A stretch of 64,000 nucleotides of DNA. It comes from Naegleria gruberi. Taxonomy: Eukaryota. Positions 797-61,524 of the stretch are shown here, one piece after another (position 1 is the stretch's first letter; every line of letters starts with the position of its first letter). Position numbers and translations under genes: made by a program. The DNA lies in NCBI GenBank assembly GCA_000004985.1, contig GG738865.1; one strand, given 5' to 3'. Below the pieces are notes generated by a model. The model worked only from the letters and a program-made list of their open reading frames with translations, was not told the DNA's origin and ran no database searches.

Positions 797-1129
797 ATGC
801 AGAAGGCCCCTCCTACAAAATATGTTTTTGTAGAACAACCAAATGAACAACAGTTGGAATTATTATTGTCTTCTGATGAAGAAGATTATCAAACTTCGGA
901 GGAGGATTATGAAGATTATTATGATGATCCGTTGACTGATGATGAATTTGATGATGTAGAATATGATTCTGATGGTTCTGGCAATGATTCCGATCCATCA
1001 GACGATTTTTTGGCACAATTGGGTTTACCAATGGGTTTACCAGCTGGATTAGGGTTACCAATCTTTACTGGTGGTACAATTGGCTCAAACTATCCTCAAA
1101 TCTTCCATTTGGTCCATTTGCATCAATGA
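797..1129 (+). CDS. Acidic D/E/Y-rich ORF, probably the 5' part of the downstream gene (1126..3327) or an upstream coding segment interrupted by a frameshift.
   Basis: ATG at 797. The protein is DEEDYQTSEEDYEDYYDDPLTDDEFDDVEYDSDGSGNDSD... Its stop overlaps the next ORF's ATG as caATGAgag. The adjacent frame is open from 988, so a single indel in the GGGTTTACCA repeat (1021-1060) would fuse the two. A further in-frame-1 ATG at 739 (MKRQRSLSDSSASSSS...) is also open across this region. Confidence 0.3.
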   Translation: MQKAPPTKYVFVEQPNEQQLELLLSSDEEDYQTSEEDYEDYYDDPLTDDEFDDVEYDSDGSGNDSDPSDDFLAQLGLPMGLPAGLGLPIFTGGTIGSNYPQIFHLVHLHQ

Positions 1130-3327
1130 GAGAATTTCAAATGCGTGATTTCTTCTTGTTTACTGATGGATTTTTAAAAAGTTATAAAGGAAACTTAGAA
1201 GAACTCAAACAACAGATTGATAGTAGAAATGGAAGAGTTGTAAATAATGCAGAAGCATTCTTTAGAGTAATATTGCTGTCAAGTATGAGTAGACGATATT
1301 GTGAACAATATGAAAAGTACAAATATCTTATGAGTTTGGGAGAGCAAAAAACTGAAGAAGAATGGAAGAGTTTATGCACTACAGATGAGCTTCAACTGTT
1401 CAAAACAGATTCAAAATCCCCAATGTCACCTTCAAAATTTCAGATGTTGAACGCAACTATATACTTGATTTGCACTGAAGATGAGGCAAGAGCGGCCACT
1501 CCACTGTTTACTATGGTAAATTCGTTTACTGATTTTAGTGACCTACCTCATGCAAATATCTTCGCTGAGAAGGGACTTGAGGCCTATTTGAATAATCCAA
1601 GGTCATTGATGATTCCTAGAATGTTTAAGCTTACCAACCCTATTCCTCTTACAAAACACTATGCCATTATGGCAGAATCTGCTGAAAAGAAAGAAGAAAT
1701 ACGTAAATTTTTACTTCAAAACGGTGCACCACATGTAATTGATAATGTGATGGGACCAGAAATTATACTAGACTATAATTCTTTCTGTGTAGTGTATAGT
1801 GATGCTATACCTGACATTATAGCTCATAATGCAGAAACATTGAATTATGAAGCAATTAGCATTGGTATTACGAGTTCTTTTAATGAATTCTACTCATACT
1901 CCTCTGTTGTTCATGCAGTCAATAGTTTGACCAATATTCCACACTCTCCTTTCGTAGAAAAGTACAGACCTTTGCTATTGAAAAACATACCAATTAAGAG
2001 TTTAGTATTATACTACAGAACCCACAGTAGAAAAATGATACCTGAAGATCAATTCCAACAATTTCCAACAATTTCTCCATCTGAAAGAATATCTACCATC
2101 CTTCCTAATGAAGTATTCTTTGTAATCCTAAAATTTTTACCAGTCAATGATATCATGAATAATTTTTCGATTACCTGTAAAAAAGCAAGGAAAATGAGCT
2201 TTGCAGACTACTTGTGGAAGGATATTTGTCTTGCCTATGCTTCCAATTATCCATTCCTGAAACCATTTACAAAAGAGGAAAATCTGACGAGAACCAAGCT
2301 TCCTCACTATTACATATTCAGAAATATCATTAACCCAATTTTAATTGATTACAAATTGGTCACAAACTATATCAATTCTGTATGTAAGGAAGAGCCAGAT
2401 ATTTTCAAACTCGATGTATTCAATAATACTGTAACAACGGCTCTGTACATGGACAGGTATGGCATAGAAGACTCTGAAATCAGTGTTGGTGCAACTAAAA
2501 TGTTTGGAAGTGCTGATCTGCCGCCATGTCTTTACAACACTAAATATGCCACAACTCCTTTATTGTTACAATTGAATATTACCGATTTGAGATCAAAGGG
2601 TATTGGAATACTTTCATTGGAAAATTCTCCATTCAAACACCTGTTCCCACAATCTGGTATCTTGTACTTCTTTAAAGACATGAGCACAGGAAAATCAGAT
2701 GATGGACTTTTATTGCATTATGATGGTGATTTGAGTGAGTTGAAGAGAACAAACGGACAAGAGTTGGCATCAGCTGTTAATTTCTATGAAGCTTTATGTG
2801 TTCCGAAGAGATCTGAAATGGGTTGGAGTAAATCTATTTCCTTAGCTTCTCTAATCACTCCACGTAATAGAGATTTTATGGATGAGTTTGGTGTCGATGA
2901 TTTTGTTTCACAATTGATTCATGCCAAGTTTATTCGTGAAGATGTAACAAAATTGTTTGGAGAATTGGGCTGTTTTACTGAGGGCGAATGGTATGGTGGT
3001 TTTCATGGTGGTTTTAATGATGATCCAGATGATGAAATTTCTCATTCAAGATGCTTAGATAAGTATGTCGATTTGAGACATATGCTTGCTCCAATCTTCC
3101 AGTTGAGTGGAAAATTTAGTATGGGTAGACGAATGGAAGCAATAGGTTTTGCTGCCCTAGTGAATACGAATGATAGACATGCAATGTGGAAGCCATTGAA
3201 TCCAAATATGCCAAATGTCTACACTTTAGATGAATGTTATTGCTCAGATTTTTTCAATCAGGTACCAGCGAAATTCAGAAAAGCCTTCAAAACACTTATT
3301 AAAGAATTTAAACGTGCAGAGTTTTAA
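1126..3327 (+). CDS. Hypothetical 733-aa protein with a central F-box-like motif.
   Basis: Long uninterrupted ORF with the codon bias of its neighbours. ISTILPNEVFFVILKFLPVNDIMNNFSITCKKARKMSFADYLWKDIC fits the F-box pattern LP.E....IL..L......C..W.......LW. I recognise no other domain. Confidence 0.5.
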   Translation: MREFQMRDFFLFTDGFLKSYKGNLEELKQQIDSRNGRVVNNAEAFFRVILLSSMSRRYCEQYEKYKYLMSLGEQKTEEEWKSLCTTDELQLFKTDSKSPMSPSKFQMLNATIYLICTEDEARAATPLFTMVNSFTDFSDLPHANIFAEKGLEAYLNNPRSLMIPRMFKLTNPIPLTKHYAIMAESAEKKEEIRKFLLQNGAPHVIDNVMGPEIILDYNSFCVVYSDAIPDIIAHNAETLNYEAISIGITSSFNEFYSYSSVVHAVNSLTNIPHSPFVEKYRPLLLKNIPIKSLVLYYRTHSRKMIPEDQFQQFPTISPSERISTILPNEVFFVILKFLPVNDIMNNFSITCKKARKMSFADYLWKDICLAYASNYPFLKPFTKEENLTRTKLPHYYIFRNIINPILIDYKLVTNYINSVCKEEPDIFKLDVFNNTVTTALYMDRYGIEDSEISVGATKMFGSADLPPCLYNTKYATTPLLLQLNITDLRSKGIGILSLENSPFKHLFPQSGILYFFKDMSTGKSDDGLLLHYDGDLSELKRTNGQELASAVNFYEALCVPKRSEMGWSKSISLASLITPRNRDFMDEFGVDDFVSQLIHAKFIREDVTKLFGELGCFTEGEWYGGFHGGFNDDPDDEISHSRCLDKYVDLRHMLAPIFQLSGKFSMGRRMEAIGFAALVNTNDRHAMWKPLNPNMPNVYTLDECYCSDFFNQVPAKFRKAFKTLIKEFKRAEF

Positions 3328-34045: not shown

Positions 34046-35492
34046 TTATTCACCTTCAGGATCGACCACTTCCTCACTTGCAGCAGATTCTTCACCATCC
34101 TGTTCAGTGCCGTTAGAGAGACTTTGTTTTCTCTCTTCCAAATTCTGCTCTTCAATTTGTTTTCTTTTGGCTTCTTCTCTTTTCCTTAATTCACGTCTTC
34201 TCCTCTCCATTTCTTTTGATTCGGCATCGACAATGTCTGTAAACTTTTCTCGATACTCTGTAATTTGCTTAATCTTTAAATTATAAAATGAGAAACATTG
34301 CTTGAATAGTATGGAGTGATCGTACAGTCTTCTAGTACTGTGATTCAAATAGTGCAATACTTCTCCCATGTGTAATCTTTGTTCAAGTGCAGTGTCATGC
34401 AATTTGAGATATGACATTGCTACTCTGAAAAGTATTTTTGTTCCTTCACTGAAAACTAAATCTAAAACTCTCATCGATGTCTCAATAGGGAAAACCTCAA
34501 TAAATAATCTCATGAACCATCCACTGGCAAATGCCGTTGTCTCTACTCCAAATTTATGTAAATGAGCATGAAGTTTTGGTAATCTTTCCTTGATTAGTTC
34601 GTCCAAAACATAAGAATCCACTCTCATACCAGTAAGTTCTGGATTATAATAATTTGCTGGTAAAATGTCTTCGAGTAAGGTTACTAAGAGCCAAAAAGCT
34701 TCTTCCTCTCCACAGTGCAATAATAAACTTCCGACAATATAGTTCAAACTCTGGCAATAGCTTACGTAAGGGTTTCTCCAACTGAATGCTGTCAATACAT
34801 TCTTCATTTGTGATCTTCCTATTGAGTGACTATTACAGAAAAATGGATGTGAAGGGAAAGTTCTACACAAATCCAAGTCTATCTGAGCTTCATTCGGACA
34901 TGTTTGACCCTTGTGAACTGTTTGATTTAAATTAAAAAGAACTTTAAATATTTACCTTCGAGAATCTTCTTGTAATATCCTCTGTTTTCCTTCATTTTCT
35001 TATCCACTCCCGTTATTTGAATCCAAACATGTCTTCTATACCAAGATGGAATTGAATGTTTTCTTACCAGTGCCTTGACTGTTTTCCTTGCAGAGTCCGA
35101 TTTTAACAATTTTCCTTGAATTCCACCACATTCATCAATATAATGTTTCCACGCTTTTGAACTTTCTTCATAGACTTTTTCTCTTTTTGATTTAATCCAT
35201 TGTGTATAGGCTTGATAAACTTCAGGATCATCATTTGATTGAGGTTCAGGAAATCCATAATTTACAATTGAACACCACTGATAATTAATTTGTAATTCAT
35301 CGGTGTCGTTCAACAATTTTAATCCATCCTCATGAATAGTATCATCTAAAAAGTTTCATCAAAAAAAGTAGATTTATCACCCCCGTCATCATTTTAATAT
35401 TTCATCAAACAAATATATAAAAACATACGATCTTCCTCTTCGGTTAGGTTATGATTGATAGGCCCTTTTGATTTGAATGGATTGAGAGGCAT
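34046..35492 (-). CDS. TBC-domain Rab GTPase-activating protein, in 3 exons.
   Basis: Model complement(join(34046..34917, 34956..35345, 35429..35492)), introns 38 and 83 nt, both phase 1, about 441 aa. The Arg-finger region IPSWYRRHVWIQITG (IxxDxxR type), LDLCRTFPSHPFF (RTFP motif) and the Gln-finger YVSYCQSLNYIVGSLLL (YxQ motif) are all present. The track ORF 34927..35316 begins at a TTG, not the true start. Confidence 0.8.
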
Positions 35493-35832: not shown

Positions 35833-36924
35833 CTAAAAATCCTTAATTCCCTTCTCATTGCTGCCGTCACCATTCCTCAGATACATCATGACTGCAACAA
35901 ACAAAAGAATATTATGAGCATGTTTAACATCCACACAATTAATTTCCAAATACAAACTTCCATTACTTTTAAAAGCAATTAATTGAGCTCTCTTTCTTTG
36001 AATAATTCGTTCATAATCTGGAACTAGATCCGTTTTGTTTCCAATTAGTATACTTTCCACCTTTTCAGTTCCTTTGATATCATTAATATCATTCTCGGCT
36101 CTATCCAATGATTCTAAACGATTCAAATCAAACATTATCAAAGCAGTATTTGCATTCCTCTTGTATAAAGATGTATAAAAATAAGCAGGTTGATCCCATA
36201 ATTGCAAATCTCTAAGGATACCATCCCAAAGTTTGTAAATTTTGAATGTGTGTGCTGATGACACTACTCCAGGAGTGTAATCTCCAATTGATAAACTGTC
36301 AAGAGAGCTTTTCACAAAGCTCGTTTTTCCTACATGATGGTCACCCGTCATGATACATTTGAAAATTTTCTTATTGAACTCTAGGTTGTTTGAGGTGGAT
36401 ACAGAACTAGTGCTGGATGATAATAATCTCGACGAAAAATAAGAAAATAAATTGAATAAACTATTGGGAGATTCCTTTTTTGGTTCATCTTTTGGTTGTT
36501 CAATTTTTTTTGAAAGTATGTCAAAATAATATTCCACCAATTTCATTTCATCAAGAAACCAATTGGTTCTCTTTGGTTCGAATTTTTCCCATTCAAATCT
36601 TTGTCTTTCCCTTTTTTTAAATTCACTTCCTTCAAGAAATTCCACACATAATCCATAAATATGTTCCCTTAGCTTTAATTTTAGAAAATGGGTGAATAAT
36701 TTGTGTTCATTACAACTTTGAATATCTAACGAAGAATAGTTAATATTAGATAAAAATTCTGTAAATTGTTTGTAAATCTCCCGAAACGATAATTCTCTCC
36801 AGGATTCACAAACTCTTCCAATAGTGAAATATTGTTCTGGAATTGAAAAGAAATGATAAATCTCCAACAATAATTCTTCGGGAAGATTATTGATCGTGGC
36901 AACAATTTGTTGATTTTCTTTCAT
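35833..36924 (-). CDS. F-box-like N-terminal domain fused to a divergent Rab/Ras-like small GTPase domain.
   Basis: First ATG at 36924; the track start 36954 is TTG. The N-terminus NLPEELLLEIYHFFSIPEQYFTIGRVCESWRELSF fits the F-box pattern. The C-terminal half has the P-loop KCIMTGDHHVGKTSFV (GxxxxGK[ST]), a switch II-like LWDQPAYF and the guanine-specificity motif LIGNKTDL (NKxD). Confidence 0.65.
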   Translation of the reverse strand: MKENQQIVATINNLPEELLLEIYHFFSIPEQYFTIGRVCESWRELSFREIYKQFTEFLSNINYSSLDIQSCNEHKLFTHFLKLKLREHIYGLCVEFLEGSEFKKRERQRFEWEKFEPKRTNWFLDEMKLVEYYFDILSKKIEQPKDEPKKESPNSLFNLFSYFSSRLLSSSTSSVSTSNNLEFNKKIFKCIMTGDHHVGKTSFVKSSLDSLSIGDYTPGVVSSAHTFKIYKLWDGILRDLQLWDQPAYFYTSLYKRNANTALIMFDLNRLESLDRAENDINDIKGTEKVESILIGNKTDLVPDYERIIQRKRAQLIAFKSNGSLYLEINCVDVKHAHNILLFVAVMMYLRNGDGSNEKGIKDF

Positions 36925-36994
36925 TTTTCTTTCTTCAAAAAAAGCCAATTTCAAATTACAAAATTTGAGAATAATTTTATTGAAATAACAGAGT

Positions 36995-38061
36995 TTAGAA
37001 AATGAATGGAACGAGGACCTTTCTGTTCTTTGGATAGAGTTCTCTACCGTCCTTACCGTCGAACAACTTCTTCAAAGCAACGTGCTTCTTAATAGCCCAT
37101 GGAAGCATTTGACCAGCACCACTGAGAGTGTACAAGAAACATGGGAGAGATTGAATCATGATTGAGAAGAAAATCCATTCCAAAATTTCAAAAGTATAAT
37201 TTGGACAAGTGACGTATTCAAAGAGGAATCCTCTTGGGATCTTTCTACCCTTTTCACCTGGCTTTCTCAAATTCTTCAAGATAATGTGACAAACAAAGTT
37301 ACCAAGCATGGACAAAACAACACCAGCAGCACCAATGTAAACTTGGAGATCAGATGGTGATTGATACTTTGGATGGATAGTAAAGTGAGCAACAAGATAA
37401 GCATAACCCCAATAATAAATACTATTCTTGAAAATGTTGAAAATTGGCATGGTATCAGTACCGAAAACGTGAACAAAGAGAGTTTCAAATTCTCTCTTGA
37501 TAAAGTGAGCCATGAAGAGAACAGTGGCGATCCTATTATTATTGTGTGATGGTGATGATGATCAGTTATTATCAATAAATTTCACATAATTATTAACAAA
37601 ATCAAAATTATTTAACACAATCATGATGTCATCATTAAAAATCACCATTAATTCAATATCATCATCGGATCAAATATAAAAACATACATTTGAGTATTGT
37701 TCAATTGAACAGGTTCTCCGTGAATGTAAGGAGCCAAAAAGTAGGCAAGTGGGAAAGTCAAGATTGGACCAAAATATTCAGTCAAAAAGACGGTTCTCCA
37801 AGCAATTTGAGGACCCAAATCCTTGAACATGACAACAGATCCGTCCTTCAAATCAGCAACAGGTCCATTATTTTCAGCAGCAACGATCATCTTTCCTCTT
37901 TGACCAGTAGTAGCATCCACATAGTAAAAAGCTTGTCTACTTGGATCAACTCTCTTTTGTTGATGATAGGCCTTCTTCAAATCAGTCAAGCTTGGTGCTT
38001 GCAAATCCAACTCGGCCAATTGCTTCTTGCCGGTTCTTGCATCAACGACGGAAATTTTCAT
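36995..38061 (-). CDS. Very-long-chain enoyl-CoA reductase (TECR/Tsc13, steroid 5-alpha-reductase family) with an N-terminal ubiquitin-like domain, in 2 exons.
   Basis: Model complement(join(36995..37532, 37688..38061)) with a 155-nt intron (GTATGT..TAG, phase 2), 303 aa. An N-terminal UBL (MKISVVDARTGKKQLAELDL...) precedes the C-terminal 3-oxo-5-alpha-steroid 4-dehydrogenase domain (...FMAHFIKREFETLFVHVFGTDTMPIFNIFKNSIYYWGY...EYVTCPNYTFEILEWI...). Confidence 0.85.
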
Positions 38062-60406: not shown

Positions 60407-61524
60407 TTACATGACATTACACTTTTTAGGTTGCTTTTGGACTCTCTTTTTACATTCGTCAATGAATGCTACATCGTATTCCACACAACCTTGCAACAGA
60501 GCTACATTGTCAACTCCGCCAAGTCTCTGTTTTCTAATAAGTTCTTCGAAAATAAGAGTGACATTCTCTCCAAGTTTAGCACTGCTCATCACTATTGAAT
60601 AGTTCAACAATGAATATTCTGAAATAATTGAATTGAATTCAGATTTATACTTCTCAACAGTTTCTGCTCTATTTTCTTTCAATAAATCCATCTTGTTCAT
60701 TACAAACACAATTGGCATGTCATTAACTACATAATCTTTACAACGAATCAACAGGTCAACTTGATAACGAACATCTCTCAAAGAACTTTCATCATTCACT
60801 GCACAAACAATTACAAAACTTTGACCAACTCTCAGGTATTGATCTCTCATTGCAGAGAACTCCTCTGGACCAGCTATTTTCAAAACATTATTCAAATATT
60901 CTATTAAAAACTCAAAAACATACCAGTATCTAGAATATCCAATAATACAGGCTCTCCATCAACCTCAACATGTTTTCTATAAGAATCCTCAATTGTTGGA
61001 TCGTACTCTGATATAAAGACATTTTGAACGTAGTGAATTGTCAATGCAGATTTTCCTAAAATAGCTTAGTTTTAAATTCAAATAATGAAATACTAACCCA
61101 CTCCTCCTTGCCCAAGCACAACCACTTTAACTTCTTCTGATCCCTTACTCGGATCATATTTTGGTCTTTTCCACACTTTAAACTTGATGAAACTTGCCAA
61201 TAGAATTTTCCTCTTCATATCCCCTTTTTTAATCATTTGTGATTTGAGTTGTTCCAACTCCTTTTCAAATGCAGGCATTACAAAATTCTTTTCCAATACT
61301 GTCCACCAAAATGTATTGAAATAGTTCTGCATTTCATTCATACTCGAAATTCTCTTGCTGATTGATTGAAAAATTGCTGCCATTCTAATGTCAGATTTTC
61401 TACTCGCAGGATTATTCAATTCTTTATCAACTCCGAATGATAAAATATGTTGGAAAATTTCATAGGGAAGTGATGAGAATAGCGTTTGATGGTGGTGAGG
61501 CATTTTTTTTCTTTCTTTTTGCAT
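60407..61524 (-). CDS. Ras-subfamily small GTPase with a C-terminal CAAX box (CNVM) and a roughly 125-aa N-terminal extension carrying an F-box-like motif, in 3 exons.
   Basis: Model complement(join(60407..60873, 60924..61055, 61098..61524)), introns 50 and 42 nt (GTATGT..TAG and GTTAGT..TAG, both phase 1), about 341 aa. The N-terminus has [12 protein letters not shown]. The core reads [12 protein letters not shown]|[43 protein letters not shown]|[20 protein letters not shown]...VFVMNKMDL...SSAK. It is Ras-like throughout, but switch II reads DTAGPE, not DTAGQE. Confidence 0.8.

Follow-up and report, generated by a model that had tools for sequence, protein, structure and literature searches.

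At positions 35833 to 36924, on the minus strand of a 64,000-nucleotide stretch of Naegleria gruberi DNA (hereafter the window), an F-box-like stretch lies upstream of a divergent small-GTPase domain, and the locus raises the question of whether the two belong to one protein and what such a protein might do. A preliminary description had read it as a fusion of the two domains, and as the second of two independent cases in the window. The minus strand from 35833 to 36954 is a single stop-free open reading frame (ORF) whose first ATG, at 36924, opens a protein of 363 amino acids. The public record is shorter. XP_002677810.1 (“predicted protein”, 237 aa) is a 100% match to residues 127-363 of the ORF, and its start in RefSeq and UniProt is the internal Met127 (36546), so the public model is without the N-terminal 126 residues and hence without the F-box (36546-36924, minus strand). 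The features of the longer model are as follows.

35833..36924, minus strand: complete single-exon coding sequence of 363 aa plus stop, the locus of XP_002677810.1 (ORF, RefSeq match and Table S8 of Herman et al. 2021)
36766..36894, minus strand: F-box domain, aa 11-53, with the core LPEELLLEIYHFFSIPEQYFTIGRVCESWREL at aa 14-45 (Pfam, family profile against solved F-box proteins, AF2 helices)
36502..36765, minus strand: family-conserved helical linker, aa 54-141, holding the RefSeq start M127 at 36546 (paralogue colinearity, AF2)
36370..36501, minus strand: Ser-rich low-confidence linker, probably disordered, aa 142-185 (pLDDT below 50 for aa 139-184)
35872..36369, minus strand: divergent Rab-like GTPase domain, aa 186-351, without a C-terminal cysteine (Pfam Ras 48.8 bits, Foldseek)

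If the RefSeq model were correct, the locus would encode a stand-alone 237-aa small GTPase from M127, and the upstream F-box-like stretch would be untranslated or a relic. M127 is the start in the public annotation, the upstream ATG lies just 70 bp from the stop of the preceding gene, and look-ups of transcripts and contigs gave no record for either product (363 or 237 aa), nor did transcript or protein evidence of the full-length form turn up. Against this reading, the 126 codons upstream of the RefSeq start are stop-free, which has a chance probability of about 7e-5 at 34% G+C composition (about 1e-12 for the whole 363-codon ORF). They are also coding-like in one frame only: by codon usage, the remaining frames score -29.5 and -46.7 bits and frame 0 scores +29.3 bits, a value comparable to that of the GTPase part and inside the range of the window’s long ORFs. 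Given the stop-free run and this frame-0-only codon usage, it is very unlikely that the N-terminal stretch is non-coding. Furthermore, the upstream codons encode an F-box above Pfam cut-offs and are colinear with paralogues of the same architecture, in which conserved positions just after M127 (Y133 and F137) sit in a region that begins before it. Specialists have already corrected XP_002677810.1 to 363 aa (Herman et al., PMC8296547). Overall, the statistics of the ORF, its codon usage and its conserved colinearity with the family all disfavor a truncated protein, and we consider the RefSeq start to be very improbable. The matter has a practical side: because the RefSeq/UniProt entry does not carry the F-box, domain-architecture surveys on public proteomes will overlook it, and the one place where the corrected 363-aa model can be found is a supplementary table of Herman et al. 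2021.

The upstream same-strand gene is TECR-like, of the steroid 5-alpha-reductase family (Steroid_dh, 36995-38061, minus strand). The gap between its stop and the ATG of the F-box gene (36925-36994, 70 bp) contains AATAAA. It leaves room for no more than a very short promoter and 5' UTR of the F-box gene, unless these extend into the 3' end of the upstream gene; elsewhere in the window, too, genes are commonly separated by short gaps. Downstream, about 0.5 kb past the Rab-like gene and on the same strand, lies a RabGAP-TBC gene of at least two exons (34046-35316, minus strand; 169.5 bits in Pfam), an adjacency that may be chance in a compact genome. Farther off, the 733-aa ORF at 1126-3327 (plus strand) encodes a third F-box protein of the window; its F-box is internal (aa 326-369, LPNEVFFVILKFLP...; 29.3 bits with F-box-like and 21.3 bits with F-box), and Pfam found in it no GTPase domain and no other domain. 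A 1387-aa ORF at 56202-60365 (plus strand) carries a long proline-rich repeat at about 58250-58880 that looks formin FH1-like by eye and creates spurious long ORFs on the minus strand (58256-58873, 58453-58803).

Both halves of the 363-aa protein are recognized by profile. At the N-terminus, F-box-like (PF12937) scores 28.3 bits over aa 11-53 against a Pfam cut-off of 24.3, and F-box (PF00646) scores 27.2 bits against 20.5; the motif LPEELLLEIY...VCESWREL occupies aa 14-45. A profile of the family’s F-box segment matches solved F-box proteins, led by FBH1 (1.8e-6) and FBXL17 (2.2e-5) and followed by FBXO44, FBXW7 and Skp2. An AF2 model built with 11 family sequences as input (mean pLDDT 66.6, moderate confidence; pTM 0.72) places helices at F-box-like spacing (16-23, 28-37 and 40-60), with pLDDT of only 61-72 there. 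At the C-terminal end, Ras (PF00071) scores 48.8 bits over aa 189-338 against a cut-off of 21.6, Roc scores 30.7 bits on the same domain in Pfam, and NCBIfam returned only a generic, sub-threshold small_GTP match. The model folds residues 186-351 as an alpha/beta GTPase domain, for which Foldseek found 1249 PDB matches at E<=0.001. The top ones are mostly Rabs, among them Rab5, Rab3, Rab35, Sec4 and Rab8 (E about 1e-8, TM on target 0.65-0.80). With both Pfam domains above their cut-offs in one ORF, the fusion of F-box and small GTPase that had been proposed for this locus is borne out.

Between the two domains lies a long extra stretch, aa 54-185, which is an inter-domain linker. Its first part (aa 54-141) matches no Pfam family, is modeled by AF2 with helices at 68-99 and 117-141, and is conserved across paralogues, Y133 being invariant and E126 and F137 nearly so; the Ser-rich part that follows differs in length between paralogues. 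The “long inserts” attributed earlier to the GTPase core are not found in it; relative to canonical Rabs, the core gains 2 residues in switch I and loses 4 in switch II. We describe the locus, with considerable confidence, as a single 363-aa protein of a Naegleria-specific clade, in which a canonical F-box is followed by a helical region particular to the family, then by a disordered, Ser-rich linker, and finally by a divergent Rab-like GTPase domain that is not prenylated.

To find relatives of this protein, 1.84 billion representative sequences were scanned exhaustively with HMMER, which gave 1314 matches at E<=0.001, nearly all to the GTPase domain alone. Near-full-length alignments (aa ~10-350) numbered nine, comprising seven Naegleria proteins and two metagenome sequences. 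The N. gruberi members are XP_002675157 (the best, at 34% identity), XP_002676638, XP_002677004, XP_002674905, XP_002680716 and XP_002672613, and the N. fowleri member is XP_044563075, named “F-box domain-containing protein” in UniRef; all are colinear with the target over nearly its full length. A word-indexed homologue search with the target protein found only the short RefSeq entry, and the paralogues surfaced by HMMER alone. The family alignment is conserved in all three parts, F-box, helical block and GTPase, with a consensus that runs from LPxE...VCxxWR through the block with invariant Y133 to GxxxxGKTS, TIGxDF, QLWDxxGPERF, TKxD and EITNT. The same domain combination thus recurs beyond this locus, and the conclusion drawn earlier that the genome holds a real F-box-GTPase family is upheld both by these full-length colinear paralogues and by the published family (PMC8296547). 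The target belongs to a Naegleria-specific, rapidly expanding F-box-Rab-like clade.

One of the metagenome relatives is a 360-aa protein with an F-box and Ras/Roc matches, 30% identical to the target, encoded at 2130-3212 (plus strand) of contig L001 (JGI metagenome 3300002220, MLSBCLC_10245333). Its neighbors are PH-domain and rhomboid genes in a compact, eukaryote-like arrangement, and the source is presumably an uncultured heterolobosean. A bacterial (Legionella) origin of the metagenome relatives was considered, and these eukaryote-like PH-domain/rhomboid surroundings in L001, the sole contig checked, speak against it.

Neither the gene nor its corrected model nor its family is new. In a re-annotation that covered the entire Ras superfamily of N. 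gruberi, Herman et al. 2021 (BMC Biol 19:142, PMC8296547) list in Table S8 the identical 363-aa sequence as a “Rab”, XP_002677810.1* (the asterisk marking a manually corrected model), with F-box as an additional domain. Their Supplementary Material 4 describes expanded Naegleria-specific Rab-like clades with N-terminal F-boxes, and the authors proposed “GTPase-dependent ubiquitination” for the family (PMC8296547). The gene analyzed here is one and the same as theirs and shares with those clades both architecture and a Naegleria-restricted distribution. The novelty implied by the preliminary description accordingly falls away, the exact model having been published in 2021, and since the functional idea of GTPase-linked ubiquitination appeared in that year as well, the locus has little discovery value. 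What is added here is a motif-level account of the degenerate switch regions and a set of negative F-box tests on the neighboring Ras gene.

The motifs that define a working GTPase are unevenly preserved. Three of them were placed by alignment:

36322..36345, minus strand: G1/P-loop GDHHVGKT, aa 194-201, intact (against GxxxxGK[ST])
36178..36198, minus strand: degenerate G3/switch II WDQPAYF, aa 243-249 (against DTAGQ and the family’s WDxxGPERFxxxT)
36028..36039, minus strand: G4 NKTD, aa 296-299, intact (against NKxD)

The motifs quoted in the preliminary description, LPEELLLEIY...VCESWREL, GDHHVGKT (aa 194-201), WDQPA (aa 243-247) and NKTD, are all present, and it was right to note the loss of the canonical DTAGQ, at whose place WDQPAYF stands. 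Compared with our own family alignment and with N. gruberi Rab11 and Rab18, WDQPAYF has lost both the DxxG glycine and the catalytic Gln, and 4 residues are deleted relative to the family consensus and to Rab11/Rab18. Switch I (RabF1) reads TPGVVSS in place of TIGxDF (TIGVDF), with a 2-residue insertion versus canonical Rabs, and G5 reads EINCV where ETSAK (SAK) is expected. No prenylatable Cys motif (CC, CXC or CAAX) was found at the C-terminus (...NGDGSNEKGIKDF), the last 20 residues of which include zero Cys. Relative to canonical Rabs, then, the fold, the P-loop and NKxD are shared, whereas the DxxG glycine, the catalytic Gln, SAK, the switch I motif and the C-terminal prenyl cysteines are missing; the family consensus retains the Rab-type TIGxDF, QLWD and YYRG.

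GTPases of the Ras superfamily sense the gamma-phosphate through the DxxG glycine and a threonine in switch I. An intact P-loop and NKxD make nucleotide binding plausible, and a normal GTP switch or normal hydrolysis is unlikely in a protein that has neither the DxxG glycine nor the catalytic Gln and from which the switch I motif and part of switch II are gone. Judged from these motifs, the GTPase domain of this paralogue (XP_002677810.1) is probably a nucleotide binder that does not switch, that is, a static, pseudo-GTPase-like module. With no prenylation site, the protein is probably cytosolic.

The same losses could be read as the onset of decay, the locus being a functionless copy in a birth-and-death family whose ORF is intact and whose GTPase is already crippled. 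Besides the 4-residue deletion in switch II, the protein has lost switch I and G5 together with the DxxG glycine and the catalytic residue. The gene also stands without a close orthologue: none was found in the exhaustive HMMER scan, where the best relative is 34% identical, and its gene ID is absent from the one-to-one orthologue column of the N. fowleri sheet of Herman et al. 2021 (PMC8296547), which fits the HMMER finding. Moreover, the F-box-Rab-like family is reported to be under birth-and-death evolution, with members that include pseudogenes and disrupted coding sequences (PMC8296547). Decay is, however, hard to square with 363 intact codons (P about 1e-12 by chance) and with the good preservation of the F-box core, the P-loop and NKxD. 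The shortened switch II recurs in two paralogues, P0017 and P0025, which suggests tolerated divergence, and Herman et al. did not flag the 363-aa gene as a pseudogene (PMC8296547). We therefore regard a decaying copy as improbable and retain the reading of a pseudo-GTPase-like protein with an intact F-box.

The second case claimed for the window, 24 kb from the 363-aa gene, is a Ras-like gene that had been given the same two-part design.

60407..61524, minus strand: Ras-family GTPase, three exons (61524-61098, 61055-60924 and 60873-60407), 341 aa, CAAX CNVM, DTAGPEE (reconstructed splicing)

The reconstructed 341-aa model agrees exactly with the corrected sequence published as XP_002677816.1*, for which Table S8 lists no additional domain (PMC8296547). 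Its core is that of a true Ras (125 bits with Pfam Ras). As had been stated, the two GTPase cores are not close paralogues, one being Rab-like, the other Ras, at 18% identity.

The F-box of this Ras-like gene fared differently. Pfam found none in the spliced 341-aa product at E<=10, and resemblance to an F-box in its 130-aa N-terminal extension is confined to the LPxEIL first-helix motif. The extension itself (61098-61524, minus strand; 110-170 aa) follows the pattern LPxEILxxILSF ... FQSIxK ... FWW ... LKRK, belongs to no Pfam family and, in the Ras clade, is interrupted past the first helix by a loop whose length varies from 0 to about 60 residues. It is conserved in many N. gruberi Ras paralogues and in homologues from N. 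fowleri, N. lovaniensis and Willaertia magna (P0169, P0172, P0183, P0185 and P0188). A profile search of a large protein collection with the N-terminal extension of the Ras-like gene gave two matches only.

Could the extension be a cryptic F-box, expanded by its loop beyond recognition? Pfam F-box-like is the most recurrent weak match to it, found in 5 of 11 published paralogue N-termini and 6 of 7 database homologues (best E 0.0067), and these matches mostly span just the first 15-20 profile positions. A Willaertia protein without the loop insertion aligns with F-box-like positions 2-45 of 47 (E=0.007), and one N. gruberi Ras paralogue reaches 21.7 bits against the PF13013 cut-off of 21.6, the sole exception among scores that are otherwise all sub-threshold. 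In hhalign, the Ras extension and the F-box of the 363-aa protein’s family align over 18-19 columns with a probability of 84-88%. Searched against PDB sequences, profiles of the Ras-extension family recovered no solved F-box protein at a significant E-value; the top matches were apolipoprotein A-I and other helical noise, and cyclin F, FBXO42 and MAX2 appeared at E of about 1-2 over the first helix only. Across the Pfam, PDB-profile and fold tests, no sequence or structure match of the Ras extension to an F-box rose beyond chance.

As far as sequence comparison goes, an F-box in the Ras-like gene is not statistically supported, and we hold a cryptic, loop-expanded F-box in the Ras-clade extension to be doubtful, if less so than decay of the 363-aa gene. 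The profile comparison suggested for both proteins thus divides them, with F-box and Ras above cut-off in the target and Ras but no F-box in its neighbor. The shared two-part design does not hold, and the argument from two occurrences in 64 kb is left with one solid case, because the F-box of the Ras-like gene has no statistical support; its conclusion, a family, stands on the other grounds given above.

A feature that the two clades do share concerns the active site. Pro replaces the catalytic Gln in both, as WDxxGPERF in the Rab-like clade and as DTAGPEE(F/Y) in the Ras clade, where it occurs in the Ras-like gene (60860-60925, minus strand), P0159, P0169, P0183 and P0185. Pro at this position suggests that both GTPase expansions may be hydrolysis-deficient. 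If the cryptic F-box were real, five GTPase families of Heterolobosea would have acquired F-boxes, and Pro in both clades would point to a shared class of hydrolysis-deficient “GTPase-receptor” SCF subunits.

Comparable proteins offer some guide to what the 363-aa protein might do. RhoBTB is an atypical Rho GTPase with BTB domains that acts as a Cul3 adaptor. Like the target, it is an atypical Ras-superfamily GTPase, presumably poor in hydrolysis, fused to an adaptor domain for a cullin-RING ligase, and it is the closest functional analogue. The two differ in adaptor (BTB/Cul3 versus F-box/Skp1-Cul1), in order (the GTPase is N-terminal in RhoBTB) and in GTPase type (Rho versus Rab-like), with no homology beyond the GTPase fold. 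Herman et al. cited RhoBTB in the same context (PMC8296547).

Another is TbFRP, the FYVE-F-box-GTPase of Euglenozoa (PMC3593210), a discoban protein in which the F-box likewise precedes a Rab-related GTPase domain. TbFRP also has an N-terminal PI3P-binding FYVE domain, whereas Pfam found none in the 363-aa protein at E<=1, and we rule out orthology of the two on this ground. The authors of TbFRP did not find an N. gruberi orthologue (PMC3593210), and no full-length relative from Euglenozoa is among the named HMMER matches. TbFRP and the target are likely independent fusions. Similarly, some Legionella effectors with a Rab domain bear an F-box or U-box (Gomez-Valero et al., bioRxiv 10.1101/350777). 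These too combine a Rab-like domain and an F-box in one polypeptide, and Legionella inhabits amoebae including Naegleria; the effectors are secreted bacterial proteins, whereas the named full-length relatives of the target are from Naegleria, and the likeness is one of architecture alone.

In the mechanism that we propose, the F-box would attach the 363-aa protein to an SCF (Skp1-Cul1-Rbx1) ubiquitin ligase by docking with its Skp1 subunit. The GTPase-like domain, which occupies the position usual for the substrate-binding domain of F-box proteins, would recruit or gate targets for ubiquitination, for example Rab effectors or regulators, and in this paralogue (XP_002677810.1) it would do so as a static binder rather than as a switch. 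A role as SCF substrate receptor or adaptor, in which F-box docking is combined with recruitment or gating of targets by the GTPase-like domain, is inferred from this arrangement, and we give it roughly even chances.

F-box proteins are commonly auto-ubiquitinated in SCF ligases, and this counts toward another use of the same domain. The F-box might couple the GTPase itself to SCF for rapid self-turnover, rather than serve substrate reception, as has been proposed for TbFRP. For TbFRP, which is processed rapidly, the F-box has been put forward as the mediator of turnover (PMC3593210). The case is one of analogy alone, and the authors of that study left the function of the TbFRP F-box unclear (PMC3593210). 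In addition, self-turnover is compatible with a receptor role too, and with a crippled switch, tight control of “GTPase signalling” is less obviously needed. We consider turnover of the GTPase itself unlikely as the purpose of the F-box, though somewhat less so than the decay of the gene, and favor the role of receptor or adaptor.

Through the F-box-Rab-like family, dozens of GTPase-like proteins become candidate receptors of ubiquitin ligases. Within it, the XP_002677810.1 paralogue could provide a simple test case for whether F-box-GTPase proteins need a GTP switch to work with SCF.
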